From an uncultured bacterium (GTDB lineage Bacteria > Patescibacteriota > Minisyncoccia > Phycocordibacterales > Phycocordibacteraceae), in contig CAWKPH010000001.1 of assembly GCA_963851445.1 (NCBI GenBank), positions 61,813-125,812 on the forward strand: a stretch of DNA of 64,000 nucleotides, written 5' to 3'. The position numbers and the translations under genes were made by a program. This document shows positions 9,669 through 62,882 of this stretch, piece after piece; position 1 is the first letter of the stretch; each line of letters opens with the position of its first letter. The notes beneath the pieces were generated by a model that saw only the letters and a list, made by a program, of their open reading frames with translations, was not told where the DNA came from and did no database searches.

Positions 9669-10974
9669 TTATTCCTGAATGAAGGTCAGTGCTTTACCGG
9701 CTGCACCTGCACGCCCTGTGCGGCCAATACGGTGGGTATAGTCCTCGTAGGTCGCGGGAAGATCGTAGTTTATAACGTGCGAAACAGCACTTATATCTAG
9801 GCCGCGTGCAGCGACATCGGTAGCTACAAGAACATTCACCTGACCTTGTTTGAAGAGGCCAAGCGCCTTCTGGCGACGCCCATGTGTCTTATCGCCATGG
9901 ATGGAATCAGCACGAATACCAACGTGATTAAGATCTCGTTCAAGACGCTCAACGCCATGCTTGGTACGGCCAAAGACGATTACCTTGTCGAACCCAGGTT
10001 GTTTAAGCAGGTTGGCAAGTACTTCGAGTTTTGATTCACCTGCCTTGATGCGGACAACATCTTGATCGACGGTCGCCGCGGTATCGCGTGTCTTTACCGA
10101 TACGACTACGGGCTTGTTGAGAAATTCGCCAACGAGCTTTTCGATTTCGCGTGAGAGCGTCGCTGAAAAGAACAACGTGTGGCGGGGGCTTGGCATTTGT
10201 CCGAGTATAAAGCGCATATCTGGAATGAATCCCATATCTAGCATACGATCAGCTTCATCGAGAACGACCGTGCCAAAGCTAGAAAAATTAAGTTCTCCTC
10301 GTTCTGCAAGATCCTTCAACCGCCCAGGAGTACCGATGACGAAGTTAGGATTGCGGCGAAGCTGTCGCATTTGTGGAACGATATTCGCCCCACCGACGCA
10401 ACAGACTGCATTAATGTTGAGAGTTTTTGCGAAGCCATAGAATTCCTGCTCGATTTGAAGCGCAAGTTCACGAGTAGGAACCATGATGAGTACGCGTTCA
10501 TCCTGTCCGAGTACGACGAAGCTTTATGATTTTGTCGAGAAGCGGAACGAGAAAGGCTGCTGTTTTACCAGTCCCTGTCTGCGCCATACCGACAACATCC
10601 TGACCCTTGAGCGCGAACGGAATTGCTTTGTCCTGAATCGGGGTTGGGGTTATATAGCCCTTTTTAATAATGTTGTCCTTGAGACGTTGGTCGATAGGAA
10701 AATCGGCGAATTGATGTTCAGGAATGAATACATCCTCGTCCTCAGTAACGACTGCCTTATTGATGAGTTTCGAAAGGTCGACGGACATCTCCTGGAAGCC
10801 TTTCTTTGACTTACCTCCTACAGAGCGGCCTCGAGAATTTGAGTACCTCGAACTGCCACGGTTACTATTTCCGCTTGAATTGTTGTTAAAACGTGAGCCG
10901 GAACTTCCACGACCGTAGTCGTTGGATCGCGGCGGGCGACGACCATCGGTACGTCGCATATATGTTGTTGCCAT
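9669..10974 (-). pseudogene. DEAD-box ATP-dependent RNA helicase interrupted by a 1-nt indel near 10498-10508 (or sequencing error)
   Basis: ORF 10498..10974 carries the Q-motif and motif I (AQTGTGKT). ORF 9669..10484 carries PTRELA, DEAD, SAT and the HRIGRTGR motifs. A second frame reads …[14 protein letters not shown] across the junction. Confidence 0.7.
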
Positions 10975-19512: not shown

Positions 19513-19603
19513 AGAGATGTTGTTATTGGTATGTGTCTATTCTACCAAATTGATTCGTGAGTTACACGTGAATTGTGCTAGCACAAGATTCGAACAAAGT
19601 TCG

Positions 19604-21445
19604 CTAATGCGATGCAATGAACGCAATGGTCGATGGTCCGAGAACGCCTGTGCCCACAGAAAGATTGAATGGTGCAAGTATGTTTGTGGTGTGAGCTTCC
19701 TGGAATTTGACAAGTGCGTTAAAAGTGAGCGTGCCAAAATAATCGGTTTCTTGTCCTGGAGAACCTGTGCCTGCGGCGGCAATTGTAAAGCCATGGGAAT
19801 TGAGATACTGCTGAAGTGCCATCACGTCGCTACCCTCCATGCCACGTTCTAGATAACGCTTGAAGGCAACACTTGTAGCAGAGGTTGAGCTACCGACTTC
19901 TGCCACCGGTGGAGCAGCGATTGATGGAACAACGACCGGAAGCGAGGAGGAGGCAACGGGTGGGAAAAGATTTGGCCACTCTGTTTCAAGTGCCTGAGCT
20001 GCCTTTGTATTACCCGTGCTATTAAGATACGTTACTTGTGAAGTTACCGAACCGCCGCCCGAAACGCCTTCGTCGTTTGGTGCAATCGTATCAATGACAT
20101 AGTTAGCGGAAGTCGAAGGTGAAATTACACCGGTGATCTTGGTTACGCTGTCTCCTCCAGAAATCTCGTTGTTATTATTATTTGCGGTCCACATGTTCGT
20201 ACCGTCGAAGGCAATTTCAGCAGGACTGAAACCGACACCGGTGTATGTGACCATCGTGCCGTTAGGGGCAATCTCAGTGACAGCACCTTCCTCAGTACCG
20301 GGAACACCAAAATCAGTCACCCACATATTTGTGCCGTCGAAGGCGATACCATTGGGGCCGTCGCCAGTGCCAGTATATGTGGTTATCGCACCGGATGGGG
20401 TTATCTTCGAGACACTCTTGCTGTTGTTTTCAAAATCAAAGTATGGTGCGGGGCTGAAGCCACCGTAGTTGGCAGTCCACATATTTGTGCCGTCGAAGGC
20501 GATGCCGATGGGTCCAAGCCCAGTCCCTGAATAGCTTGTTGAGGTGCCTGTTGGAGATATTTTTGTAACACTGTCGCCGCTGCCGGTATCGTTACTGCCA
20601 TAGTTAGCGGTCCACATATTTGTGCCGTCGAAGGCGATGGATTGGGGTCCCGGAGTCGTGGTGGCGGTGAGGAGTACAGCGCTCGTAGAAGCAATTTCGG
20701 TGACGATACCTGGAGAGACGCCGTCAACGTAACTTGATACCCACATATTTGTGCCATCGAAGGCGATGTCGTCTGGAGCTTGCGCTACGGTAATGGGAGA
20801 ACCGATGATAGAACCATTTAAACCAAGCTCTCTTACTGTGGTACCGTTGCCTGATCCTACACCGAGAGGACCTCCATAATTTGTTACCCACAGGTGCGTG
20901 CCGTCGAAGGCGATGCCGGAAGGACCATCGAAGCCGCTGTATGCGGTGACGGTGCCGCTTGGAGTGATCTTGTCTACGTCGTCGTTATTCCCATTCGTTA
21001 CCCACATGTTCGTACCATCAAAGGCGATGCCGTAGGGCTGGTTAAAGCTCGGGTCTTTATAGGTCGTGCCTATCACTTTCCCTTTTACACTAATTACATT
21101 TGTTCCTGCACTCGTGTTTGCACTCGGAGTGAACGTCGCTGTATAGACGTCGGGGTTTGTGGTGGATGCAAGATTCGTGAGGATGCCGTTTGTCGCTGAT
21201 GTATCGCTAGCAGTAAAGTCGAGCGGCGCTGCTGGGAAGGTAAAGGTAACGGTCGCAGTTTGACCGACGCCCAAATTAGAATTGCTGATCGTAATAGTCG
21301 GTCCTGCAAGTGGAGCAGGCATGGATCCCGAAGTCGTAAGCGGAAGTATGCCATTAAAAGAAGCAAACGCAGACAAAGGGAGCATAAACGAAAGTGCGAG
21401 CATAATGACCGCACCCAAGGTATGAGGCCGATAGATTGTTTTCAT
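19604..21445 (-). CDS. Secreted beta-propeller repeat protein (NHL/Vgb-lyase-like IAFDGTNMW repeats) with Ig-like N-domain and C-terminal peptidoglycan-binding (PG_binding_1) domain
   Basis: 613 aa ORF with a signal peptide, about eight repeats of P.GIAFDGTNMWV(T/A)N…SVTKI(T/S)P at ~50-aa spacing, and a C-terminal …VMALQQYLNSHGF…GTLTFNALVKFQEAH domain. Confidence 0.6.
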   Translation of the reverse strand: MKTIYRPHTLGAVIMLALSFMLPLSAFASFNGILPLTTSGSMPAPLAGPTITISNSNLGVGQTATVTFTFPAAPLDFTASDTSATNGILTNLASTTNPDVYTATFTPSANTSAGTNVISVKGKVIGTTYKDPSFNQPYGIAFDGTNMWVTNGNNDDVDKITPSGTVTAYSGFDGPSGIAFDGTHLWVTNYGGPLGVGSGNGTTVRELGLNGSIIGSPITVAQAPDDIAFDGTNMWVSSYVDGVSPGIVTEIASTSAVLLTATTTPGPQSIAFDGTNMWTANYGSNDTGSGDSVTKISPTGTSTSYSGTGLGPIGIAFDGTNMWTANYGGFSPAPYFDFENNSKSVSKITPSGAITTYTGTGDGPNGIAFDGTNMWVTDFGVPGTEEGAVTEIAPNGTMVTYTGVGFSPAEIAFDGTNMWTANNNNNEISGGDSVTKITGVISPSTSANYVIDTIAPNDEGVSGGGSVTSQVTYLNSTGNTKAAQALETEWPNLFPPVASSSLPVVVPSIAAPPVAEVGSSTSATSVAFKRYLERGMEGSDVMALQQYLNSHGFTIAAAGTGSPGQETDYFGTLTFNALVKFQEAHTTNILAPFNLSVGTGVLGPSTIAFIASH

Positions 21446-21480
21446 ACTTAAACTATATCATCCGATATTGCGCTCAACTC

Positions 21481-21663
21481 TCAACGATGAGGCAACCCTG
21501 CCCAGCAGCAAGGGCTTCGCATTCCACTGTTAAGCTTTGAGATTCCTTTTTTGATACAGATGCTGTTTCGAATCCGAATCTTCTTTGGAAAAGCCTTGCT
21601 TGCTCTTTGCGTGAGTCCTTGGAAATCTGTACGAGGTTTCTCGCACGCTATAAAAAGTGACAA
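21481..21663 (-). pseudogene. Possible remnant of a YdeI/OmpD-associated family gene
   Basis: 60 aa ORF ending …KKGISKLNSGMRSPCCWAGLPHR resembles the C-terminus of the intact YdeI-like protein at 23116..23418 (…LIEGMRRPCCWIGCIHR). Confidence 0.25.
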
Positions 21664-21695
21664 AAGTGACAGAGGAACGCACTTCTAGGTGTCAC

Positions 21696-22220
21696 TTAAA
21701 TAGTTACATCCATCTGTAACGTTTCCTTAATTTCATTCAGCGTTTCTTGGATATTCTTGTCTTTTGTATCTATAACAACCGCATCTAATCGCTCCTTTCT
21801 AAGCGCATCAGCTTTCTCCCACAACTTTCCCACCTTTTCTGGAGTAAGAAGGCTTCCCGGCCTATATCCACGCTCGTCTGCACGCGCTTGGGTGGTGGCT
21901 TTGTCAGCAAACAAGAGAAACTCGTATACCTCTGCGTTGTACTTCTTGGCTACAGCAATAAACAACTCAAGAGTATCTGAGTACGAAATAGCCTTATCAA
22001 TAATTACGCTCTGCCCATTTCTAAAGGCTCCGTCGATGGCGCCTGCTGCTTTCTCATAAGCAAGGCTGAGACTTTCTTCCTGGTTTTCCTTGTAGTCTGG
22101 TATCGAGCGGCGAATCTCATCTACATCAATAAGAACCGAGTTCGGCATATCTGCATGTAGTAATGTCGAAATTGTAGACTTGCCCACTCCCGACGGACCA
22201 TTGAGGATGATAAGTTTCAT
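21696..22220 (-). CDS. P-loop NTPase, AAA_33/zeta-toxin/CPT-like small-molecule kinase
   Basis: 174 aa ORF with Walker A (LNGPSGVGKST) and a small kinase-like fold. Confidence 0.6.
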   Translation of the reverse strand: MKLIILNGPSGVGKSTISTLLHADMPNSVLIDVDEIRRSIPDYKENQEESLSLAYEKAAGAIDGAFRNGQSVIIDKAISYSDTLELFIAVAKKYNAEVYEFLLFADKATTQARADERGYRPGSLLTPEKVGKLWEKADALRKERLDAVVIDTKDKNIQETLNEIKETLQMDVTI

Positions 22221-22228
22221 ATTTCCGC

Positions 22229-22729
22229 TTAGCCTATTAGCTTCTTAAGTTCTGCGACATCTATACGATCTGATTCCCGTTGCCACATGAGCATCTCTTT
22301 GTTTTTTATGATAAGTGCCTTGGAAAGAAGTGGTAATTTGAATCTCTGCCATTCGACTACTTCAACATTAGGGAAACCGTCTTTGTAGAAATTCTCGTAC
22401 TTTTGGATTTCCTTATCAAAAATATCCATCTCGGACATAGGACAGATATCCAAAATTTCCATCACTTCTACGTTGTAGTTGTCGTAGTTCTGGTCAAAAA
22501 AATGTTCGAGGGGACTCGTGATGTATGGCTCCACAATTGAGAGAAATTCCTTGAAGACAGCGTCATCTTTGGAGACTTCAATATCAATGTCAATGTCCGT
22601 GATACTGCGAGGTACACCGTACACGTAGCATGCAAATCCACCCGTGATGCACCAGCGCAAATTGAGCTTTTCAAGAATCGGAATTATATACGTAAGCGCT
22701 TCATATGCTTTTTGCTGTTCGGGACTCAT
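22229..22729 (-). CDS. Nucleotidyltransferase-fold protein (aminoglycoside/lincosamide NTase-like)
   Basis: Contains the NTase signature GGFACYVYGVPRSITDIDIDI (GS…D.D). Start taken at MSPEQQ to avoid overlap with the dgkA-like stop. Confidence 0.5.
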   Translation of the reverse strand: MSPEQQKAYEALTYIIPILEKLNLRWCITGGFACYVYGVPRSITDIDIDIEVSKDDAVFKEFLSIVEPYITSPLEHFFDQNYDNYNVEVMEILDICPMSEMDIFDKEIQKYENFYKDGFPNVEVVEWQRFKLPLLSKALIIKNKEMLMWQRESDRIDVAELKKLIG

Positions 22730-22740
22730 GTTGAATTTTT

Positions 22741-23091
22741 CTAAGCAAACTTCCGAATCAGGATGAAAGCAAGACAAACGAGTCCGAATATCGCTGCCCA
22801 AAAAACAGCTGCCGAAGCTAAATCCTTACTGCGTCCAATTGCTTCATCACGTGCAGGGTGGATCTTGCTGAGCGCCATTTCAATTGCTGAATTCTGTAAC
22901 TCAGTGACTATTACAAAGAACCAGCAGAATGTAAGTAATAGCATGTCATCCGGAGAAAGATCGAATAAGAAATAAACAATTGGGAGTCCAATAACAGCAA
23001 GCGCGATATCGATTTGGATAGCGCTATCATGCGTAAGAGCGTAGAGCAATCCACGAAACGGGTGTGAGAATCTTGTAATCCAATACTTCAT
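22741..23091 (-). CDS. Diacylglycerol kinase family protein (prokaryotic DgkA/undecaprenol kinase type)
   Basis: 116 aa ORF with three TM helices and the ALTHD…NSAIE…DLASAAV motifs. Confidence 0.75.
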   Translation of the reverse strand: MKYWITRFSHPFRGLLYALTHDSAIQIDIALAVIGLPIVYFLFDLSPDDMLLLTFCWFFVIVTELQNSAIEMALSKIHPARDEAIGRSKDLASAAVFWAAIFGLVCLAFILIRKFA

Positions 23092-23115
23092 AACATCATT
23101 TTACCTTGAGAATCA

Positions 23116-23418
23116 TTACCTTTTAGCTTTTTTCTTGCGCAGTATCCCTCGTACCGACTGGCTGATTGGCTTGTCAGTTCGGTGAATGCAGCCTATCCAG
23201 CAACACGGTCGCCTCATCCCCTCGATGAGTTCCGAACATACTCTTCTCACATGATCTTTCCGCGTCTCCGGGGTCTTAACTGAGATGGTCCAGCAAATCC
23301 ATTCATTCCGTGCGAGCGGCGTAATGTCTTCCCATGCAGCGAGCGCTTTCGGTGAAGTAACGAGTGCCTTCTTTAAATCTGCAGGTAACTTATGCGCAGT
23401 TCCTGATGATACTTTCAT
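23116..23418 (-). CDS. YdeI/OmpD-associated family protein
   Basis: 100 aa ORF; …LAAWEDITPLARNEWICWTISVKTPETRKDHVRRV…RRPCCW matches the family. Confidence 0.6.
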   Translation of the reverse strand: MKVSSGTAHKLPADLKKALVTSPKALAAWEDITPLARNEWICWTISVKTPETRKDHVRRVCSELIEGMRRPCCWIGCIHRTDKPISQSVRGILRKKKAKR

Positions 23419-23500
23419 AACAGCATATTAACATTTAACTTTCTGTGCCTGTCCATGAATGGCACTGGGTCTAGTATATAAAGTTAAGGTTTAAAGAGTT

Positions 23501-23521
23501 GGTTCGAGTCTTAGAGAGGTC
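23501..23521 (-). repeat. Copy 3 (inverted orientation) of a 21-nt repeated element GGTTCGAGTCTTAGAGAGGTC
   Basis: Shares about 21 of 31 positions with copies 1 and 2, on the opposite strand, and abuts the ICMT-1 stop codon. Confidence 0.35.
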
Positions 23522-24197
23522 ACCACACAAACGGCACTAAGTGATATTTCACTTTCTTCTCGTACTCCACATAGCCCGGAAGATCTCTTGCCAATACTCG
23601 CTCTTCGTCAAGAAGTCTCCAAACGAGTACTAGTGTGAAAAGAACGAGCGTAAGGAGTCCCCACCACGAACCAAGTGCAAGTGGAGTCCCCAGAATGAGG
23701 ATGAGAGCTCCGCTGTACATAGGATGTCGGACCCAGGCGTATGTACCAGTAGAGATGACCTTCTGTCCGCTATCTACTTCAATAAGTGCAGAAGCGTACG
23801 TGTTTTCTTTAAAGACAAGGAATACGATATAGAAACCAATCACAACAAGAATATCGCCTATAATGCTTACATACGATGGCACTATGGACCAGCCGAAGCG
23901 ATGATCAAGTGCTGGAAGAATAATGACTAAAAGGAATGAGACCTGGGCAATGGATTGTATTATCTTCTGACTTGTCTCTTTCTCGTTGAGCGGACCTGCG
24001 CTTATTCGCCGCTCCAAAAGCTTCGGGTCGCTTTTCATCAAGTTGATGGTGATCGCGAAAGCCGGCCCAAAGAACGCTATGAGGAAAACCCATGCTTGCC
24101 AGTAATTAAAGGTCCATGCTGAAATAAAGAGCATTGCTGCCGTGACAGCGAGAAGTGTAAGAGATCCAATAACTGCTTTTAGGTTCACATTTTTCAT
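23520..24197 (-). CDS. Isoprenylcysteine carboxyl methyltransferase (ICMT/PEMT) family membrane methyltransferase, paralog 1
   Basis: 225 aa multi-TM ORF with C-terminal …RHPMYSGALILILG…LLDEERVL…EYEKKV, typical of ICMT. Confidence 0.75.
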   Translation of the reverse strand: MKNVNLKAVIGSLTLLAVTAAMLFISAWTFNYWQAWVFLIAFFGPAFAITINLMKSDPKLLERRISAGPLNEKETSQKIIQSIAQVSFLLVIILPALDHRFGWSIVPSYVSIIGDILVVIGFYIVFLVFKENTYASALIEVDSGQKVISTGTYAWVRHPMYSGALILILGTPLALGSWWGLLTLVLFTLVLVWRLLDEERVLARDLPGYVEYEKKVKYHLVPFVW

Positions 24198-24210
24198 CGT
24201 AAAGCTTGAA

Positions 24211-24885
24211 TTAGAAAATTCCCGGTATTAGGTGCCAGTGAACCTTCGCTTGATATTCCGTATAGCCCGATAGATTTAATGCAAGAAATTTTTCTTCGTC
24301 AAATAATCGCCAAACAAAACCTAGAGCCAGGAGAACAACTGGAACAAGTCCCCAATAAGAGCCCAGAGCCAAAGATATACCGATGAAATAGAGTATCGCA
24401 CATGAATACATTGGGTTTCGCACGATTGCATAGGGACCGGTTGAAACGACTTTTTGATCTTTCGTCACCTCGATACTCGCGGAACCAAAAGAATTTTCCT
24501 TGAACACTCGATACACCATCCACATGCTCAGTATGATGATGAGGTCGCCCATGATGGGAACCCAGGATGGCGCGCTCGACCATACAAAACGGTGATCGAA
24601 CCCGGGAACAATGAATGTAGCGATGAGCGGCACTCCTAGAGCCCATACTATGATCTTTTGGATAGGCCGGTGTTCTTCGGTTGGTCCACCTCGAGTTCTA
24701 TTTTCGAGTAGTATCGGATCGTTAGTTATGTAAAGGGTTATGGGGATGCTCGTCACGACGACGACTCCAAGAAATAGCCATGCCTGCCAGTACTGTATGG
24801 TCCCAGCCGAAAGAAATATTGCAAGTCCCATAAGGATAATTGTTATAACAAATCCGAACCAGGCTCCTGCTTTAGGATTCTTCAT
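24211..24885 (-). CDS. ICMT/PEMT family membrane methyltransferase, paralog 2
   Basis: 224 aa ORF with the same architecture as the adjacent paralog (…RNPMYSCAILYFIG…FDEEKFL…EYQAKV). Confidence 0.75.
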   Translation of the reverse strand: MKNPKAGAWFGFVITIILMGLAIFLSAGTIQYWQAWLFLGVVVVTSIPITLYITNDPILLENRTRGGPTEEHRPIQKIIVWALGVPLIATFIVPGFDHRFVWSSAPSWVPIMGDLIIILSMWMVYRVFKENSFGSASIEVTKDQKVVSTGPYAIVRNPMYSCAILYFIGISLALGSYWGLVPVVLLALGFVWRLFDEEKFLALNLSGYTEYQAKVHWHLIPGIF

Positions 24886-24906
24886 GACTTAAGGATAGCA
24901 CTATTC

Positions 24907-24927
24907 GACCATTCTCGGATTCGAACT
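24907..24927 (+). repeat. Copy 1 of the 21-nt element (+strand GACCATTCTCGGATTCGAACT; mRNA-sense AGTTCGAATCCGAGAATGGTC)
   Basis: Matches copy 2 at 20 of 21 positions. Lies about 20 nt upstream of the ICMT-2 start codon within a ~60-80-nt homologous upstream block. Confidence 0.5.
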
Positions 24928-24992
24928 GATTTCGCGTCCAAGAATATGAAAGCCCTTGGTCTTTCGATATTTCGATTCGAGTCTCAGAGGGA

Positions 24993-25595
24993 TCAGAATG
25001 ATCCTGTTTTGACTTCGCCTGCGCGTTGAAAATTAGCGATGATGACACCACTCGGGGTATGTATGCATTTCTCCAAAGTAAAAGCTGCAGGAATCGTACC
25101 AACTTCGAAAAGTCGTTTCCCGACACCGAGCGTAATGGGGAAAATTTTGAGCCAAAGCTCGTCAACAAGATCGTATTTAAGAAGTGTCTGGATGAAATTC
25201 CCACTGCCGTGCACCTGCAATTCCAGACCATCTTGCTGCTTCAATTTCTGGATTTCACCGATCACATTTTCTTTGAGCACAACTGTCTTCTCCCAATCGG
25301 TTTCAAGTGGCGTAGTGCTGGCGACGTATTTCGTTGCTTTGTTGATGCTGTTTCCAATCGGGTTGTCATTATGGAGCGGCCAATACGACTTGAAGATGTC
25401 GTATGTCTTCCTGCCGAGGAGCAAGTCGAACGGATGTTCCAATTGCTCAAGCATCACTTTGCCGCCAACCTCGTCCATATACGGAACTGTCCATCCGCCG
25501 TATTTGAAATCACCCGAAGTATCTTCTTGCGGGCCTCCTGGCGCCTGCATAACACCGTCGAGTGTAACAAAAGACAGGACAATTATCTTTCTCAT
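24993..25595 (-). CDS. Dihydrofolate reductase family protein (RibD C-terminal domain type)
   Basis: 200 aa ORF; N-terminus MRKIIVLSFVTLDGVMQAPGGPQED…GRKTYD is typical of the RibD_C/DHFR-like family. Confidence 0.75.
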   Translation of the reverse strand: MRKIIVLSFVTLDGVMQAPGGPQEDTSGDFKYGGWTVPYMDEVGGKVMLEQLEHPFDLLLGRKTYDIFKSYWPLHNDNPIGNSINKATKYVASTTPLETDWEKTVVLKENVIGEIQKLKQQDGLELQVHGSGNFIQTLLKYDLVDELWLKIFPITLGVGKRLFEVGTIPAAFTLEKCIHTPSGVIIANFQRAGEVKTGSF

Positions 25596-25622
25596 CCAGA
25601 GATTTTAACACACCAAGATGAT

Positions 25623-25643
25623 GACCTTTCTCGGATTCGAACT
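25623..25643 (+). repeat. Copy 2 of the 21-nt element (+strand GACCTTTCTCGGATTCGAACT)
   Basis: Matches copy 1 at 20 of 21 positions and lies about 30 nt upstream of the DHFR-family start codon. Confidence 0.5.
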
Positions 25644-25804
25644 CAATCTATGACTTACATACTCATCTCGAATCTTAGACCCGTTATGACTCCTCTAGGA
25701 AATTATTTTCCGCTCGCCAAACGGCGCCTTAGATATTCGCATGTGTCCTGGTCGTTCGATACTTAACTAGACTGCTGGAAGTGTGGAACGATATCCGAAC
25801 AGAA

Positions 25805-26209
25805 TTAGCTTTTTCTTCTGTTCAATAAAGTCACAGAAAATTGAAGAATGGTAGCGAATGTTACCCACGCGAGATACGGGAGATTACTATACGCAATCCA
25901 AGGTGCATATGTATATACAGAAAGAAGAGCCCACACTAAGGTAATGTCGACGAGCAATATATCGACAAGAGCAAGCGAGAAGTTCTGTAATCGGAATTGA
26001 ATAGTTGTGTAAGAGAAATTAAAAATTAGATTCAATAGAAACGGGAGTATTACTACAAAAGGCACTCCTTTATTAAAATATTCCAAGAATATATATCCAA
26101 AAGAAATTACGATCACTACGTAAAGAACCGTCCATACAGGAGCGAATAGCCATGCGGGAGGCGACCACGACGGTTTTCGGTATTCTTTGTATCTAGAGTC
26201 ATTCTTCAT
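25805..26209 (-). CDS. TspO/MBR (tryptophan-rich sensory protein) family
   Basis: 134 aa ORF with the PPAWLFAPVWTVLY motif and a multi-TM, Trp-rich sequence. Confidence 0.7.
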   Translation of the reverse strand: MKNDSRYKEYRKPSWSPPAWLFAPVWTVLYVVIVISFGYIFLEYFNKGVPFVVILPFLLNLIFNFSYTTIQFRLQNFSLALVDILLVDITLVWALLSVYTYAPWIAYSNLPYLAWVTFATILQFSVTLLNRRKS

Positions 26210-26271
26210 TCAAAAAGTATAGCCCATCTAGATTGGCTGGGAGTCTGGTACGACGTGGGAACCTTTTTGCG

Positions 26272-26910
26272 CTAGCGTACAGGTTGTCCAGCTAGGATTT
26301 GGAATACAAATTGCAAAAGCATAAATTGGTCGTAAATATCCTTCATTATCTCGCTTAAGGTTTCATCCTTCATCGAATTAATCTTTTCTATCAATTCAGG
26401 ATTCTCGGGATACCTAAGTAGTAAATTTTTCGGGTCAGGATATGGCCGACCCAAATATAAGTGATTCCTATATTTCAAGATTATCTCGGGTAATTTCTTC
26501 TCCCAGTAAAGAAGTGTTCCTGAATATATAAGAACTTGTGGAAGTTTTGTTTTCTTTCCTTGTATATCTACTTCCACATAATCAAAGGCATTCTCAAGCT
26601 CATCTACAGGAAGTGTTCGAAGAAGTAAGGAAATCTCTTTACCTACTTTCCGAAGGTCATGCTCATTCCGAATAGGTATCTTAAACTGAATGCTATAAGC
26701 CTTCATGGCTAATTCCAACCCATGTTTGAAGAGATAGATGGCCACTCCAATTCCATTTTTCTGTGTTCCCCAATCTTTTCTATCCTGTATCTCTTTAGCT
26801 AAGATTTTTGCATTAGAGAGATATTCTAGCGCAAAGCTAAACCAGTCCAAGAAGCCTTTCTCAAACGGCTGTCCTTCAACAATATTATCTTTGTTTATTC
26901 TTACCGCCAT
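26272..26910 (-). CDS. Hypothetical protein encoded in AT-rich (~33% GC) segment
   Basis: 212 aa ORF with no recognizable family. The local GC drop relative to ~50% flanks suggests foreign origin. Confidence 0.5.
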   Translation of the reverse strand: MAVRINKDNIVEGQPFEKGFLDWFSFALEYLSNAKILAKEIQDRKDWGTQKNGIGVAIYLFKHGLELAMKAYSIQFKIPIRNEHDLRKVGKEISLLLRTLPVDELENAFDYVEVDIQGKKTKLPQVLIYSGTLLYWEKKLPEIILKYRNHLYLGRPYPDPKNLLLRYPENPELIEKINSMKDETLSEIMKDIYDQFMLLQFVFQILAGQPVR

Positions 26911-27312
26911 TTTGAATTAATTATTTAAATGTAACGCGTTTCTTTTTAAGGTACACTCCAAGTCCAAGAGCTACCATATATGACCATGCTGTCCATTTTC
27001 GTCCAAAATCTTTTCTCCCACATATTTCTCTCTGGATCTCCACCAAATTTACTACTATTGGCCATCGTCTTATAAACATCCTCAGAAATAAAGATATTTA
27101 AGGAATCATCATTTATGGATGACAACTTTACGGCATAAAGCATTTCAATCGAAAATTCTAGGACAGAAGGAAGAAGAATGTAAGGCGAAGGAGGTAGATA
27201 TAAGAAACTATGCCAAATATCTCTTACGTGAAGGAGCTGACGTAGAGAAGCGAGAATTGCTCGGATGCCTTAGAAGCAAAATACTTTTAAGCGACAAGAC
27301 TATTTCTCTCGG

Positions 27313-27825
27313 CTAGGCTGTGTAATTCGTCTCAATATTTAGCTGAGCTTTTATTTCAAGTGCACGCGCCATCAGATGATCGCCTATCTCCCCCCAATCG
27401 AAATACTCCTTATAGTCCTTAGGGTCTATTAATTTTATCTCGGTAATATCTCCGTCGGGATCACTTACAAAATTTCCATACGGTTCGACCAAACAAACAG
27501 AGCGCGTCTGCGAGATGATCCCTTCAGAATTGTGAATATCTTGATAGCCAATAAATCGCTGTTTAAGTACACGCATGTTAGTTTCCTCTTTTACTTCACG
27601 GCTCACAGCTTCTCGAGCAGTTTCTCCTTCTTCAACACCTCCCCCGGGAGGAGTCCAATACCCTTTATTCTTTGCATACACGATAACTAACTGGTCTTTA
27701 TAGAAACAATATGCGTGAACTCCACTAATCTTTTTATCGCCATAATCTAGCTCACTATTAATATCGTGGTATTCAACTTTTAGTACTTCACCTGAAGCGT
27801 TAGTTAGATTTGATGAGATGTTCAT
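27313..27825 (-). CDS. NUDIX hydrolase
   Basis: Contains the Nudix box GGGVEEGETAREAVSREVKEETN. Confidence 0.8.
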   Translation of the reverse strand: MNISSNLTNASGEVLKVEYHDINSELDYGDKKISGVHAYCFYKDQLVIVYAKNKGYWTPPGGGVEEGETAREAVSREVKEETNMRVLKQRFIGYQDIHNSEGIISQTRSVCLVEPYGNFVSDPDGDITEIKLIDPKDYKEYFDWGEIGDHLMARALEIKAQLNIETNYTA

Positions 27826-28802
27826 ACGTACAGCTTTTGAATTATATCTCCTTGAATAAAGTCCCTAAGTAACCGAGCTTCATGCGACACAAAGTGATTT
27901 CCTCGAGCGTCTCCTAGATCGTAGTAATGGTTCTCAAGCCATGAAGTTAGTACCATGCGGCGAAGTCGGACTTCTAGTCCATCCAGTAGTTCCTTTCTTA
28001 AAATTGGATAAATGGAATTGTATCCAGCAATAATTTCATTCGCTGAAGCAACTCCACTTTCTTCGGTATAGTCACCGGTAAAGCTTATGTAAAGAATAGC
28101 GCGAGCAAGTTCAGCTGCACGAGGAGCCATTTCTGCCTTTTCCCAGTCACATACTCCGATGATTTCTCGACTCTTTGTATCTATAAGAAGATTTCCCGCC
28201 TGATAGTCACCGTGCGTCAGAATATCGCTTGGTAGTACTATATCCATACTAAGCGTTGAAATGAGATCGAGCTTTAGTTGTGTGTACGAAATAAATTCTT
28301 CGTCGATAGGATCTTTCGTTTCTTTGCTTTCAATACGCACTTTGTATTCCTGTATCTTCGCTAGCTCTCCTTCCTTTGGTTTTTCTCGAAATGACTTCTG
28401 CGTGAGAAGTTCTGGAACATCTTTACTGCCTGCAACATGTATCTTGCCTAAGAGAACTCCCATGTTTCTATAGCCTTCGAGGGAGTAGTTATGTGAACGA
28501 TCGCTTTCCAGGAACGGGTAGAGTGAATACGCATTACTGTCATATACCACAAACTTCTCTCCCATATTTGAAGGAATCATACAGACAGCAGGAATGTCTC
28601 GTTCGCTCATAAGCTCCTCAACTAATGCAGTTGCTGGAAGTATATCCTTGCTCTTCTCTCGCACTTCCTTAATGAAGTACTTTCCCGAGCTTGTCGAGAG
28701 TATGTAGTTTTTGTTGAGAATTCCTTCTGTCACCTCGCTAATAGATTGAACGTCACCCAAGCTAAAATCTGTAACTAGCTTCTTGAGGTGCTCGGGGCTC
28801 AT
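27822..28802 (-). CDS. Phosphotransferase enzyme family protein (APH/choline-kinase-like)
   Basis: Contains the HGDYQAGNLLID catalytic loop and a CDWE motif. The stop overlaps the NUDIX start by 4 nt. Confidence 0.75.
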   Translation of the reverse strand: MSPEHLKKLVTDFSLGDVQSISEVTEGILNKNYILSTSSGKYFIKEVREKSKDILPATALVEELMSERDIPAVCMIPSNMGEKFVVYDSNAYSLYPFLESDRSHNYSLEGYRNMGVLLGKIHVAGSKDVPELLTQKSFREKPKEGELAKIQEYKVRIESKETKDPIDEEFISYTQLKLDLISTLSMDIVLPSDILTHGDYQAGNLLIDTKSREIIGVCDWEKAEMAPRAAELARAILYISFTGDYTEESGVASANEIIAGYNSIYPILRKELLDGLEVRLRRMVLTSWLENHYYDLGDARGNHFVSHEARLLRDFIQGDIIQKLYV

Positions 28803-30868: not shown

Positions 30869-30914
30869 ACATGCATTTTATCAGAAGTATCTCCTTTCTA
30901 TAACTAGCGATGGC

Positions 30915-30929
30915 TTTAGGACTCGAACC
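30915..30929 (-). repeat. tRNA T-arm-like fragment (GGTTCGAGTCCTAAA on minus strand), copy A
   Basis: Identical 15-mer to copy B, 65 nt away. No acceptor or anticodon arms can be formed. Confidence 0.4.
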
Positions 30930-30980
30930 GAAATCCATCCCATATTTAAAAGAGTTCTAACTTTTCCTAATCTGCACCTG

Positions 30981-30995
30981 TTTAGGACTCGAACC
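30981..30995 (-). repeat. tRNA T-arm-like fragment (GGTTCGAGTCCTAAA), copy B
   Basis: Shares GGTTCGAGTCCTA with the T-arm of the intact tRNA-Gln 60 nt upstream. Confidence 0.4.
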
Positions 30996-31056
30996 CGAGC
31001 CTTCAAAATATCCTTTAGTTATCTACGCGTCTCGAGCGCGATAACCTAGCACGAGT

Positions 31057-31130
31057 TGGCTGCGAGACTAGGACTCGAACCTAGATAACGACCTCCAGAG
31101 GGTCGCGTCCTACCATTAGACGATCTCGCA
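31057..31130 (-). tRNA. tRNA-Gln (anticodon CUG), CCA encoded
   Basis: Manual cloverleaf: acceptor TGCGAGA/TCTCGCA (U1:A72, G73), D-arm GTCT/GGAC, anticodon stem CGACC/GGTCG with loop CTCTGGA, T-arm CTAGG-TTCGAGT-CCTAG, then GCCA. Confidence 0.85.
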
Positions 31131-33012: not shown

Positions 33013-34664
33013 CTAGGCTTTCCTTTCAGCTCTTTTTGCAGAAGCTTTAAGAAATGCTGTAAATAGGGGGTGTGGAGAGAGCGGACGCGCCTGGAGCTCG
33101 GGATGAAATTGTGTACCGAGATAGAACGGATGTTTGTCCTTAGGGAGTTCTGCAATCTCCATAAGCACATTATCGGGAGAGGTGCCTGAGAAAACGAGGC
33201 CTCCTTTTTCGATTTGCTCTACATATTGAGGATTTATCTCATAGCGGTGACGGTGACGTTCTTCAACAACCTCTTTACCGTATGCTTCCTGAGCAACACT
33301 CCCCTTTTTAAGATGTGCTGGATATACGCCAAGCCGCATAGTGCCGCCATATTGATTCTGTTCGAGAAGCGCAATCTGTTCGGGCATTACGTCTACCACG
33401 GGGTACTTAGTCCCAGGATTTATTTCGACGGTGTGGGCTCCCTCAAGACCAAGGACATTTCGAGCGTATTCGATGACGAGCATATGGAGTCCGTAGCAGA
33501 GTCCGAATAAGGTATTTTATTCTCGCGCGCAAAGCGTGCGGCTTTAATCTTCCCTTCGATTCCTGTTTTGCCAAAACCTCCCGGCACAATGATGCCATCA
33601 TATTTCGAAAGCGTTTCGATATCAGTATCCTTTTCGAAATCCTTTGCATTAACCCACTCTATTTTGGGCTTGACTCCGATCTCCGCACCAGAGAATTTCA
33701 ACGCTTCGATTACTGAAAGGACGCATCAGAAAGCACGTAGTCACCCGTATCAAAATACTTTCCAACGATTCCGATGGTGACTTCATCGTCACTCAGCCTG
33801 GCCTTCTGCACAAAATTGCGCCATTCGTGAAGTCCTGTCGATTCGGATTTAGGGAGTGAAAGTGACTCAAGTAGTAGCTCACCAAGGTTGTCCTTTTCAA
33901 AATTGAGTGGGACATCATAGATGCTTTCAACATCGGGTGCAGAGATTATGCATTCGGGAGAAACATTACACCATATGGCAAGTTTTTCTTTGCGCTTCTC
34001 ATCCATAGCGCCCGTCGATCGTGCAATGATGAAGTCAGGTTGTACACCATAGGAGTTGAGTTCGCGAATGGCGGTCTGCGTGGGCTTGGTCTTCATTTCG
34101 CCAAGCGTACCTGGAACAGGTAGGTACGAGACCATGACAAAACGGACATCGTTTGGGTGCTGGAGTCGAAGTACGCGCGCTGCCTCTATGAAAAGTGCGT
34201 TCTGAAAATCTCCTACCGTTCCGCCTATTTCTATTACTGAAATCTGGCTACCGTTCTGGGCGGATGCCGCATAGATCCGACGCAGGATCTCGTCGCGTAC
34301 ATGAGGAATTGCTTCAATCGTTTTACCGCCATACTCGAGTGCACGTTCGCGATTGATTACGGATTGGTACACCATGCCACTTGTCATGTAGTCTTCGCTT
34401 GAGAGGTCGCGACCAAGAAAAACGTTCGTAATTACCCATATCCTGGTCAGTCTCAAGCCCACTACGCAGCACAAACACCTCCCCATGCTCAGTCGGATTC
34501 ATCGTGCCCGCATCAACATTAAGGTAAGGGTCAATCTTTACAAGATTGACCGTATACCCACGCCCTGTAAGAAGGAGTCCCATCGATGAAGTTGCGATGC
34601 CCTTGCCTACACCAGACATCACCCCTCCTATTACGAAGATATACTTGTGTCCTTCGGTTGCCAT
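33013..34664 (-). pseudogene. pyrG: CTP synthase (pyrG) broken by three single-nucleotide indels (or sequencing errors)
   Basis: Four consecutive ORFs (34323..34664, 33710..34486, 33420..33701, 33013..33483) are collinear with PyrG: synthetase N-terminus ([11 protein letters not shown]…[13 protein letters not shown]), middle, and GATase domain (…GIIVPGGFG…, …[21 protein letters not shown]…, …HRHRYEIN…). Junctions lie near 34424-34428 (A5 run), 33717-33722 and 33505-33509. Confidence 0.8.
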
Positions 34665-36322: not shown

Positions 36323-37210
36323 CTATTGTACCTTATTTGCCGCAGCTGCGTCCATGAAATTATCAAGCTCTCCTCCAAGAACTGCCTCGGGGTCATGCGA
36401 TTCATACCCGGTTTCGTGGTCTTTTACGAGTTTATAGGGGTGGAGAATGTAGGAACGCATCTGGCTACCCCATTCATTGGCGGTTTCGGCGGCTATAGAC
36501 CGACCCTTGGCTTCAAGTTCTTGTTTTCTTTCTTCCCGAGCGAACAATTTTGCACGAATAAGTTCCATCGCTTTCTCTCGATTAGCTTGCTGAGAACGCT
36601 CGCTCGAGACGTGGACTGAGACTCCTGAGGGTGTATGGGTAATACGCACCGCAGTCTCACGCTTATTGACGTTCTGACCGCCCGCTCCTCCCGAGCGTGC
36701 AAATTGAATGTCCAGGTCTTCCGGACGCAGATCAACTTTCTCATTAGGCGCAAGCTTGGGGAGTACTTCGACGAGCGCAAATGAGGTCTGACGCTTGCTA
36801 TTAGCATTAAATGGAGAAATTCGCACCAAGCGATGCACGCCGGACTCATGCTTTAGTCGTCCGTAGACGCCTACACCACTAATTTCAAGGAGTACATTGC
36901 GGTAACCACCGTTATTGTTCTCGTTGGCATGGAGCTCCCAGGTAGTCCATCCTTTTTTCTGTGCATACCCCTCATACATCCTGCGCAGCATACGTGCGAA
37001 ATCCTCTGCGTCATCGCCACCTGCACCCGCGAGAATGGCAAGTGTTGCGGACCCACGATCATGAACGTCCCCCCCAGCATTACCCAGAGTAGCTGCATCT
37101 TTTAAGTTCTGATATTCACGCACGAGTTTCTGCGCCTCATCTTTGTCTGCCCAGAATTCGGGCGTGGCCATTAGCGCTTCAATTTCTTCGAGTCGCAACT
37201 TTTCATCCAT
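36323..37210 (-). CDS. prfB: Peptide chain release factor 2 (N-terminally short, no programmed-frameshift site)
   Basis: 295 aa ORF with the SPF tripeptide (RISPFNA) and GGQ (SGGAGGQ) motifs. It aligns to RF2 from about residue 30, and a tRNA gene lies 45 nt upstream. Confidence 0.85.
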   Translation of the reverse strand: MDEKLRLEEIEALMATPEFWADKDEAQKLVREYQNLKDAATLGNAGGDVHDRGSATLAILAGAGGDDAEDFARMLRRMYEGYAQKKGWTTWELHANENNNGGYRNVLLEISGVGVYGRLKHESGVHRLVRISPFNANSKRQTSFALVEVLPKLAPNEKVDLRPEDLDIQFARSGGAGGQNVNKRETAVRITHTPSGVSVHVSSERSQQANREKAMELIRAKLFAREERKQELEAKGRSIAAETANEWGSQMRSYILHPYKLVKDHETGYESHDPEAVLGGELDNFMDAAAANKVQ

Positions 37211-37255: not shown

Positions 37256-37331
37256 TGGAGCCATCTCGGAGGATCGAACTCCGGACCTTTACGTTACGAA
37301 TGTAATGCTCTACCAACTGAGCTAAGATGGC
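37256..37331 (-). tRNA. tRNA-Thr (anticodon CGU), CCA encoded
   Basis: Cloverleaf: acceptor GCCATCT/AGATGGC, D-arm GCTC-AGTTGGTAG-GAGC, anticodon loop TTCGTAA (CGT), T-arm CGGAG-TTCGATC-CTCCG. Has an A31·C39 mismatch. Confidence 0.8.
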
Positions 37332-37383
37332 ACTCTATAGTTATAGCAAACCGCATGACGACGCGCGACGGATCAAACCGTGA

Positions 37384-37456
37384 GCCGATGTCCGGGATCG
37401 GACCGGAGACCTCATCCTTACCATGGATGTGCTCTACCAACTGAGCTACATCGGCT
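37384..37456 (-). tRNA. tRNA-Thr (anticodon GGU), CCA not encoded, unusual T-loop (TCCGATC)
   Basis: Acceptor GCCGATG/CATCGGC, D-arm GCTC-AGTTGGTAG-GAGC, anticodon stem CATCC/GGATG with loop ATGGTAA, T-arm TCCGG-TCCGATC-CCGGA. Confidence 0.75.
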
Positions 37457-57015: not shown

Positions 57016-57366
57016 TTACCTCCGGCCGCTGCGCTTTTTGTTCCTTTGGAAATGCTTGGGGAAACGATCTTTCTTCTGCTGGTTGCACTTGCCGCACGCA
57101 ACCACCATATTCTCGATATCGAATTCCGAACCCCCTTTTGAGACTGGAATCCTATGATCTACCGTGGCCCTGTGAGATCGCCTTGCTGCTGCGAGCTGGC
57201 GTTCGCGGGTTGAACGCGGATTCTTCTCAATCTCCACAGCCAGATAAACATCGTGACGGCAATAATGACAAATCTTTCCATCCCGCTCGATAAGGAGCGG
57301 AAGGAAGTACGCGGTATCTCCCGCAGTCCATTCTCGAGGCAACGTAAGTCTCCCATGCCAAGTCAA
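57016..57366 (-). CDS. HNH endonuclease family protein (small, free-standing; TTG start inferred)
   Basis: 116 aa ORF with the HNH motif CHYCRHDV…VDHRIPVSKGGSEFDIENMVVACGKCNQQK. It lies in the ~560-bp segment separating the Y and Z repeat halves. Confidence 0.7.
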   Translation of the reverse strand: MTWHGRLTLPREWTAGDTAYFLPLLIERDGKICHYCRHDVYLAVEIEKNPRSTRERQLAAARRSHRATVDHRIPVSKGGSEFDIENMVVACGKCNQQKKDRFPKHFQRNKKRSGRR

Positions 57367-61632: not shown

Positions 61633-61775
61633 ACGGATATTGTAGCATTTGAAAGATTTTGCCCATTTCCAGGCTTTGGTCTACCATACGTGCATGCCTA
61701 TGATAGGCTCTTGACTTCTCAAACATGTGATGCCAAGTGGACGTTCAATTACTTATAGAGTTAAATCTTATCTGT

Positions 61776-62882
61776 ATGACTATCGCATCTACTCTGTCGG
61801 CCCGTCAGTGGGCCTACCTCGCACTATCGGGGTTGCTTTTAGTAGCGGCAGTTTTGTTCTTTGGTGCACATATGAGTCGCGCAGAGAGTTCTTCAGTGAT
61901 GATCACCTCAAGCGATGCAAATCCAACAGTTGCAAAGGTGGGTGACACCGTTACTCTTTCATTCATTACGAGTGCAAGTACTACCAACCCTACGGTCGCA
62001 ATCGAAGGCCATAGCGTAGGTGTTTCAGGAGGCCCAACCAACTGGACGGCAAGCTATACCATCCAAGCATCTGACCCAGCCGGCATCGTTCCTTTTGTGA
62101 TCGATGCAAGCGGTACGGTACTCACCAGCACAACTAATAATTCAAGCGTTGTCGTGTACAACGGCGGCCCAACAGTCGTGTTGACGACTCCGTCTGCGAC
62201 AGAGCCGAATCGTACGAATCAGACTACTGTACCAGTCATGGTTACATTCTCTGAGCCGGTGCTTGGTTTTAGCGCAGGAAACCTAAAGACGCCTGAAGCG
62301 TCGGTGAGTAATTTCGCTGCACAACCTGGAGGTCAAATCTATACATTTGATTTGACCCTTAATCCTCAGTACAACACTTTCTTTGCCTACGTTAAGGCTG
62401 ACCAAGTGACTGATGCTGCGGGAAATTACAACTCTTACTCTAACGAGCTGTCGTTCCTCTATAGCCCTACGGGGCTAGGAGAAGGTCCTAGTAACATGGG
62501 AGGAGTAGTTATGACGCAAAGTGCTCCCCACGTTACCGTTACAACTGTTACAACGACTCCCCCTCCGCAAACTGAACCGAGCCTCATGACGGGCACGGCA
62601 GCCGGTACGGGTAACATGACTACTCACGAGAACTCGATGCCAGCGGGTATGGTAATGAGTGCTACACCTCCTTCTACGAGAGCCACAAGCATGACAAGCT
62701 CGACGAGTGGTCTCATGGGAACCTCAAGCAATATGATGGCTTCTTCGAGCGCATCCACAACTCCAGGAACAAGTGGTTCTGGTCTAGGCTCTCCAGCAGT
62801 ATGGGCAGGTATTATCATCATCCTTATCCTTCTTATAGGAGGAGGTTGGTGGTATTCACGCAACGTAACTCCTACGGTCTAA
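61776..62882 (+). CDS. Cell-surface protein with Ig-like (Big-like) domains and C-terminal TM anchor
   Basis: Signal/TM N-terminus, beta-rich repeats, a Ser/Thr/Met-rich stalk and a C-terminal hydrophobic anchor (WAGIIIILILLIGGGWWYSR). Confidence 0.5.
   Translation: MTIASTLSARQWAYLALSGLLLVAAVLFFGAHMSRAESSSVMITSSDANPTVAKVGDTVTLSFITSASTTNPTVAIEGHSVGVSGGPTNWTASYTIQASDPAGIVPFVIDASGTVLTSTTNNSSVVVYNGGPTVVLTTPSATEPNRTNQTTVPVMVTFSEPVLGFSAGNLKTPEASVSNFAAQPGGQIYTFDLTLNPQYNTFFAYVKADQVTDAAGNYNSYSNELSFLYSPTGLGEGPSNMGGVVMTQSAPHVTVTTVTTTPPPQTEPSLMTGTAAGTGNMTTHENSMPAGMVMSATPPSTRATSMTSSTSGLMGTSSNMMASSSASTTPGTSGSGLGSPAVWAGIIIILILLIGGGWWYSRNVTPTV

Follow-up and report, generated by a model that had tools for sequence, protein, structure and literature searches.

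The window analyzed here, a 64,000-nucleotide stretch of DNA from an uncultured bacterium of the Patescibacteriota (GenBank assembly GCA_963851445.1, contig CAWKPH010000001.1, positions 61,813 to 125,812), carries a co-directional array of small accessory genes whose spacers hold a repeated element. Judging from the alignment of its copies, the 21-mer AGTTCGAATCCGAGAAWGGTC is the best-kept core of a junction repeat of ~70-95 nt, here called J. Tentatively, and with somewhat less than an even chance, J and a second repeat, X, are read as att-like junction repeats, or as scars, left where small self-promoted gene modules were serially gained, lost and exchanged in a variable region associated with tRNA-Gln. 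What the analysis shows is the repeat family with its positions, its kinship with tRNA-linked units, the bracketing by direct repeats and the way in which modules differ between relatives; the recombination mechanism and the enzyme are inferred.

The junction repeat J and its copies

Within the window the 21-mer has two minus-strand copies, which agree at 20 of 21 positions and each form the 3' core of a J: A1 (AGTTCGAATCCGAGAATGGTC, 24907-24927), in the spacer between RibD_C and ICMT-2, and B1 (AGTTCGAATCCGAGAAAGGTC, 25623-25643), upstream of RibD_C, a gene of the DHFR family. They end 21 nt (ICMT-2) and 27 nt (RibD_C) before the start codons, and the preliminary description of this locus, which had placed them 20-30 nt upstream of these starts, was accurate. 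No third match with three or fewer mismatches is present in the window, where the chance expectation is 0 (100 shuffles), and the 21-mer has no internal dyad or tandem symmetry. The element is neither a single-genome coincidence nor part of one long coding frame: J is also found in two other metagenomic contigs (L004 and L022), and the 21-mer copies are intergenic, crossed only by a spurious antisense open reading frame (ORF; 25026-25766). Across the three organisms 19-20 of the 21 positions are conserved, much more than in the surroundings. The homologous blocks of ~60-80 nt that were first thought to enclose both copies did not hold up, as blastn and Smith-Waterman alignments limit the homology between the two window copies to the 21-mer itself. 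A longer block of ~50-75 nt is common to the 24907 copy and the copies in L004 and L022.

J is built from four parts, in this order: an inverted arm running from the upstream stop codon (TGAYCYCTCTRAGACTCGAAYC), a middle segment (TATCG...GACCAAG), a block of ~25 nt (TTTCWATATTYTKGRSCRCGAAAYC) and the 21-mer. Its outer ends, TGAYC...GGTCR, form imperfect inverted repeats with ~15 of 22 positions matching. The most complete copy in the window lies at 24903-24996 (-), where the arm (24974-24996, +) starts at the RibD_C stop codon TGA and is followed by the middle segment TATCGAAAGACCAAG, a local hairpin and the 21-mer. This copy matches the J profile with an nhmmer E-value of 1.3e-20, and the L004 and L022 copies with Smith-Waterman z=13-17. 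Upstream of RibD_C, a truncated copy (25619-25690, -; J profile E=9e-4) combines a degenerate arm (25666-25690, +) with the 21-mer, so that each 21-mer spacer holds an inverted arm of its own. A decayed copy between ICMT-1 and YdeI (23448-23524, -; Smith-Waterman z=5.2-8.5) has kept ~13 of 21 matching positions where the 21-mer would be. Its arm (GGTTCGAGTCTTAGAGAGGTCACCA, 23501-23524, +) is the third, inverted and diverged copy that had been noticed earlier at the end of ICMT-1; it is real, and it overlaps the stop codon. Taken together, the last codon and the stop of ICMT-1 are complementary to TCACCA, which resembles a tRNA end. In a profile search, all J copies of the window fall in adjacent spacers at 23.4-25.7 kb (~2.2 kb), and none was found in the other ~60 kb. 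Weaker T-loop-like members of the family occur at ~19594 (-) and at 21565-21585 (+), the latter a degenerate arm (TTTCGAATCCGAATCTTCTTT) with a terminator on one side and the next gene's promoter on the other. Immediately past the stop codon of a gene for a 613-aa repeat protein, GCGAACTTTGTTCGAATC (19573-19611, -) carries a CGAAC-N3-GTTCG dyad like the J inner stem, and the palindrome TTGTGCTAGCACAA then follows.

The RibD_C homolog of L004 is 87% identical and has different neighbors, yet J stands before it as well. Between the two loci, homology at the nucleotide level (84.7%) begins exactly at B1, with the first base of the 21-mer (25643), runs to 24968, just past the inverted arm, and then ends. 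The 5' half of the L004 J is like the window copy at ICMT-2 and the L022 copy, and unlike the window copy at the orthologous RibD_C position, so that left and right partners are reassorted at the 21-mer. The 21-mers themselves are identical at 20 of 21 positions within the genome, vs. 17 of 21 for the orthologous-position copy in L004. The same contig also holds a decayed downstream copy of J, and its RibD_C (224 aa) continues through the region of the stop codon. In L022, J lies upstream of an unrelated gene for a 93-aa membrane protein. This was the one true copy among 15 matches of a metagenome scan with the degenerate 21-mer, the other 14 being chance or coding matches, and three scans of viral contigs for the 21-mer gave chance matches only or nothing.

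A tie between J and either adjoining gene was rejected. RibD_C homologs at 72-83% identity (L005, L006, L023, L024, L025, L058/59, L060) are without J, as are ICMT homologs at 77-84% identity (L026-L028), and ICMT-2 homologs that have no J align from 24902, immediately past the 21-mer. J is therefore a lineage-specific junction element and part of no gene.

Bracketed modules downstream of tRNA-Gln

A1 and B1 are direct repeats that bracket RibD_C at a spacing of 716 bp. The gene is bracketed by direct repeats of 19-33 nt in five contigs, the window and four others: L004 (33 nt, identical, 863-bp spacing), L006 (23 nt, 704 bp; 5939-5961/6643-6665), L059 (20 nt, 679 bp; 1094-1113/1773-1792) and L023 (19 nt, 672 bp; 4934-4952/5606-5624). 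Most of these repeats include a GTTCGAA-type motif and start 3-5 nt past a stop codon. A control covered 160 genes, taken from the window and from 11 loci; its three highest scores for repeats shared between the two flanks of a gene (18, 17 and 17) all belong to RibD_C, the median being 7 and the next-best score 12. A general punctuation after every gene was thus rejected, since only RibD_C and a few modules have such repeats in their flanks. TspO is bracketed by X: copy X2 (GTTCGGATATCGTTCCACACTTCCAGCAGTCTAGTTAAGTATCGAACGACCAGG, 25746-25800, -) begins 4 nt past the TspO stop codon, and copy X1 (GTTCCCACGTCGTACCAGACTCCCAGCCAATCTAG, 26228-26262, -) lies upstream of its promoter. When occupied and empty sites are compared, the TspO-free site of L004 has a single X. 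In both the window and L004, X belongs to a repeat family of the form GTTC-N7-GTCC. This wider family, TGTTCGAAC-TTCGTCCCAC, lies a few nt past stop codons and brackets RibD_C or small modules in several related contigs; its members include the repeats of L059, L023 and L006 given above and others in L026 (1761 and 4030, -) and L060 (556).

The array itself consists of the eight minus-strand genes first listed for it, whose families were all confirmed by Pfam: an AAA_33/Zeta_toxin kinase, a nucleotidyltransferase (a weak match), DAGK_prokar, OmdA/YdeI, two PEMT/ICMT genes, RibD_C and TspO. They are arranged as modules. TspO (25805-26209, -) has its own -10 box, TATACT, and RibD_C (24993-25595, -) has its own as well (TGTTAAAAT, at 6 nt from the ATG). 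In the tandem ICMT-2/ICMT-1 module (23520-24885, -), the -10 box of ICMT-2 is TGCTATCCT, again 6 nt before the ATG. The YdeI-DgkA-nucleotidyltransferase-kinase module (21696-23418, -) is followed by a hairpin and U-run terminator (~21650-21697; fold z=-3.07), canonical terminators being used in this genome. An extended -10 box, TGnTAnnnT, stands 6 nt before the ATG of module genes in the window and in homologous loci. More generally, TAnnnT is found 5-8 nt before the ATG in 16 of 52 window genes, and at exactly 6 nt in 12 of them (examples at 21446-21460, 23419-23435, 24886-24902, 25596-25612 and 26210-26226), while a Shine-Dalgarno-like motif precedes only 6 of the 52. On the strength of these motifs, the downstream mRNAs are probably leaderless, and leaderless mRNAs appear common in this organism. 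Because the -10 box lies between the 21-mer and the ATG, the mRNA would not contain the 21-mer, and the idea of a shared 5' leader finds no support.

RibD_C and ICMT have homologs that are 70-87% identical across distant phyla, and a low-GC patch at 25800-28400 (37-41% vs. 47% for the window) spans TspO, a 212-aa protein without a Pfam match, a 400-nt AT-rich spacer and NUDIX/APH; both observations are consistent with acquired DNA. Module content also differs between the window and L004: other genes occupy, in L004, the place that in the window is taken by an S9 peptidase, APH, NUDIX, TspO and a hypothetical gene. For the neighboring DUF1761 gene, the best matches are proteins of Kaiserbacteria and Sungbacteria, at no more than 55% identity.

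The variable region is headed by tRNA-Gln(CTG) (31057-31130, -), and the array lies downstream of it on the same strand. Directly 3' of the tRNA gene are two tandem tRNA-linked repeat units (30895-31056, -; cores at 30993 and 30927), each carrying GGTTCGAGTCCTAAA, which equals 13 nt of the 3' part of the tRNA-Gln T-arm. J is 56-64% identical to the first unit over ~80 columns, and Smith-Waterman scores of J against the units stand at z=4.3-7.8 above shuffles. A profile made from three J copies matches the L004 unit directly 3' of a tRNA-Gln remnant (E=0.003). At the level of these alignments, J is related to the tandem units 3' of tRNA-Gln. The remark that the 21-mer contains a tRNA T-loop-like core was pertinent, since the element has its relatives next to a tRNA-Gln that lay outside the coordinates then considered. 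All sense T-loop-like copies are downstream of tRNA-Gln and in the same orientation as the tRNA. In L004, the 3' end of tRNA-Gln, CCA included, recurs as a near-copy of 24 nt at 2.1 kb beyond the first remnant, and remnant and near-copy bracket four genes that are absent from the window. The Islander authors describe this pattern, a displaced fragment together with a regenerated tRNA, for integrase-mediated islands at tRNA genes (PMC4383910). The distance from RibD_C to tRNA-Gln or its remnant is 1-6 kb in L004, L005, L006 and L025.

Two closer ties to tRNA were tried and rejected. The element is not a real tRNA or pseudogene, as both ARAGORN and the Rfam tRNA model are negative and T-stem pairing is not kept among the copies. 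Nor is the 21-mer a tRNA 3' end, as alignment to available tRNAs matches the T-loop core only. The 30 nt directly 3' of tRNA-Gln (31027-31056) are 100% identical in L024 (10029-10058), a contig whose RibD_C protein is only ~78% identical; in that contig they come after the 3' end of a pseudo-tRNA, GTTCGAGACCGAGTCGGCCAGCCA, which ARAGORN leaves uncalled. A tandem pair of tRNA-Thr genes (CGT and GGT) lies at 37256-37455 (-) of the window, and the 3' end of tRNA-Thr(CGT), GTTCGATCCTCCGAGATGGC, bears a loose likeness to the 21-mer that does not go beyond the T-loop core.

Elsewhere in the window, the CTP synthase gene (pyrG) is split over three or four ORFs (33013-34664, -) and a DEAD-box helicase gene is split in two (9669-10974, -), which suggests frameshifts, whether from errors in a long-read assembly or because these are pseudogenes. 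The ORF of release factor 2 (prfB; 36323-37210, -) has 295 aa only, and a different frame must encode its N-terminal part; the expectation for this gene is a programmed +1 frameshift. The 613-aa protein mentioned above (19604-21445, -) is secreted, with about nine IAFDGTNMW repeats and the domains Big_12 and PG_binding_1, and a second Big_12 protein is encoded at 61737-62882. A small stand-alone HNH endonuclease gene is present at 57016-57366 (-).

Origin of the repeats

In the favored reading, the J family would consist of tRNA-T-arm-like repeats that started out from the 3' flank of tRNA-Gln. J and X lie between transcription units: the stop codon or terminator that closes one module comes before them, and the promoter of the next, probably leaderless module comes after. 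They would bound accessory modules of one to four genes that have been gained, lost or swapped in a hypervariable region downstream of tRNA-Gln. Modules would enter and leave by recombination at the repeats. This recombination could be site-specific, the work of a tyrosine recombinase that targets T-loops and that either acts in trans or has since been lost; alternatively, homology between repeat copies could drive it. Each insertion would leave a duplicated core, and the module would end up bracketed by direct repeats, as RibD_C is by the 21-mers. Part of the earlier comparison to a cassette-type array survives here: repeats do bound self-promoted modules, RibD_C and TspO are bracketed, and the content differs from that of L004, but the classical features of integrons fail.

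A number of observations speak against such a history. No integrase, transposase or other recombinase was found by Pfam among the ~60 window ORFs, which bears out the earlier statement that the window holds no integrase, and no recombinase appears in the precomputed Pfam lists of related loci. The 21-mers match the resident tRNA-Gln in the T-loop core of ~10 nt only, and thus they do not look like a displaced 3' fragment of the present tRNA-Gln. In 185,579 species genomes, the exact 20-mer is the 3' end of no tRNA and has two chance coding matches only. The modules measure 0.5-1.4 kb, far below known integrase-borne islands. The bracketing repeats of L006 are inverted relative to RibD_C. The presence of inverted arms is not predicted by the junction model, and neither is the fact that two of them start exactly at stop codons. 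Finally, the comparison of J copies rests on 6 copies from 3 contigs, sequenced relatives being few for this bacterium, a probable member of the candidate phyla radiation.

The inverted ends bring to mind MITEs (miniature transposable elements with inverted repeats). J would then be a non-autonomous element of the Correia or REPIN type, with the 21-mer and the arm as terminal inverted repeats and no role in gene mobility. We consider this unlikely, although a size of 68-95 nt and ends matching at ~15 of 22 positions would suit it, as would copies adjoining unrelated genes in three contigs and the fact that orthologous genes of other lineages have no J in their flanks. It would also account for copies that are closer within the genome (20/21) than at the orthologous position in L004 (17/21). 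However, no target-site duplication is visible at the three window J copies or at the L004 copies, and no transposase among the window ORFs scanned. The long hairpin between the arms folds no better than shuffles (z=-0.83 and -0.89), and the arms were not reported as an inverted repeat in a repeat search of the window. The crowding of the window copies into ~2.2 kb, with none in the other ~60 kb, the kinship of J with the tRNA-Gln-linked units and the exact start of two arms at stop codons also argue against a MITE.

Quite unlikely, in our estimate, is an integron-like capture in Patescibacteria, by which promoter-bearing single-gene cassettes of ~0.5-1.4 kb would be put in and cut out at short tRNA-T-arm-like sites, with the 3' side of tRNA-Gln as the platform and a recombinase encoded elsewhere in the genome. 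The bracketing of RibD_C in five contigs would be the footprint of this process, a notion to which we give the same small chance.

The conservation of the 21-mer above its surroundings (19-20/21 in three organisms) and its constant place just upstream of a promoter could also be those of a DNA site, be it an operator, an activator site or an insulator, for a regulator of the accessory genes. The GTTC-N7-GTCC periodicity of related repeats elsewhere is like that of tandem half-sites. This reading, and with it the earlier proposal of a shared operator, is improbable: the 21-mer stands at varying distances from the -10 box (6, 9, 15 and 15 nt), and the orthologous RibD_C and ICMT genes of other lineages keep the same promoter without the 21-mer. 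Decayed copies persist in the ICMT-1/YdeI spacer and downstream in L004, and the 21-mer lacks an internal dyad or tandem symmetry. Nor would a site of this kind account for the differences in modules or for the bracketing by direct repeats. A -35 element or a fixed-geometry operator was rejected on the same variable -10 spacing and on poor -35 hexamers.

Since J starts at a stop codon and ends before the next promoter, it might act at the RNA level, as the 3' untranslated region of the upstream gene, serving as a hairpin for stabilization or processing or else as an unconventional kind of terminator or insulator that separates leaderless units. The local hairpin of the 24903-24956 copy is significant (z=-2.55), and its stem is kept with respect to L004 through three double changes. 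The four other copies do not keep it, leaving 2 of 6 that do, and the structure-conservation check that had been proposed came out negative, RNAalifold finding no consensus structure for four J copies. J has no U-run, in a genome that uses canonical terminators elsewhere, and both in L006 and behind the kinase gene of the window the repeat follows a normal terminator and stands before the next promoter. Rfam scans at gathering and E-value thresholds find tRNA-Gln only and no match for J. A role of this sort is very improbable, and a conserved RNA structure or long arm hairpin was rejected as such on the RNAalifold result and the shuffle-level fold.

A classical integron cassette array, or a cluster of attC sites lacking integrons (CALIN), with the repeats as attC, is hardly credible: the compact, co-directional single-gene units, the imperfect inverted-repeat elements abutting stop codons and the G/TT motif where module homology begins do recall one, but no IntI was found in the ~60 window ORFs (none being required for a CALIN), the ends are TGAYC/GGTCR and not RYYYAAC/GTTRRRY, no R''/R' boxes stand at the repeat ends and the only AAC/GTT-type pair is internal, the hairpins are neither significant nor conserved, every unit has its own promoter, and the flanking repeats are host-specific rather than cassette-specific, other contigs having RibD_C and ICMT homologs flanked by other repeats or by none.

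If the favored reading of J and X as junction repeats or scars is true, a tRNA-Gln hot spot where short tRNA-like repeats enclose self-promoted modules of a single gene would offer a concrete, testable route for gene flow with distant phyla (70-87% identity). No recombinase being visible, it would stand apart from standard islands as well as from integrons. If J and X are only a decaying repeat family, they are still useful markers of module boundaries in these genomes. To our knowledge, few mobile elements are known in the ultra-small bacteria of the candidate phyla radiation, and their acquisition of accessory genes is poorly understood. The literature searched yielded nothing on integrons, MITEs or leaderless promoters in Patescibacteria.

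Comparison with known systems

attC sites are imperfect hairpins of 57-141 nt with R'' (RYYYAAC) and R' (GTTRRRY) at their base. With integron arrays and CALINs, the locus shares co-directional, mostly single-gene and unrelated accessory units, junction repeats that abut stop codons and the occurrence of the same gene in different arrays. It differs from them in having no IntI, attI or Pc and no R''/L''/L'/R', in the promoters that the units carry themselves and in repeats that follow the host lineage. Like the bacterial MITEs of the Correia/NEMIS, REPIN and ERIC groups, J is an intergenic, lineage-specific element in the range of 70-100 nt, with imperfect terminal inverted repeats and a location from stop codon to promoter. 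Unlike them, it is clustered and not dispersed in the 64 kb covered here of a 687,765-bp contig, shows no target-site duplication, has weakly complementary arms and is kin to tRNA-linked repeats.

Two further systems resemble parts of the locus. The tRNA-linked repeats of tRNA operons, such as tyrT of E. coli, are short tandem units that repeat the 3' part of the tRNA, as do the short tandem units after tRNA-Gln. Nobusato et al., in 2000, reportedly described an "insertion with long target duplication" for restriction-modification genes of Helicobacter, the mechanism itself being, it is said, unknown. The likeness here lies in direct repeats of tens of nt that are single-copy at the empty site, as for TspO and X when compared with L004. 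In contrast to both cases, the present repeat family reaches kilobases away and punctuates several modules.

The tRNA-targeted islands, for which a T-loop sublocation of integrases was reportedly set out by Williams in 2002, offer the third comparison. As in the islands cataloged by Islander, tandem accretion included, a block of acquired genes lies 3' of a tRNA, with T-loop-like direct repeats in the orientation of the tRNA, and the relative L004 has a true duplicate of the tRNA-Gln 3' end bracketing different genes. The present locus departs from these islands in that no integrase was found, the modules are of 0.5-2 kb (one to four genes), the repeats copy the 3' end of the resident tRNA over ~10-13 nt only, and extra copies lie in inverted orientation.

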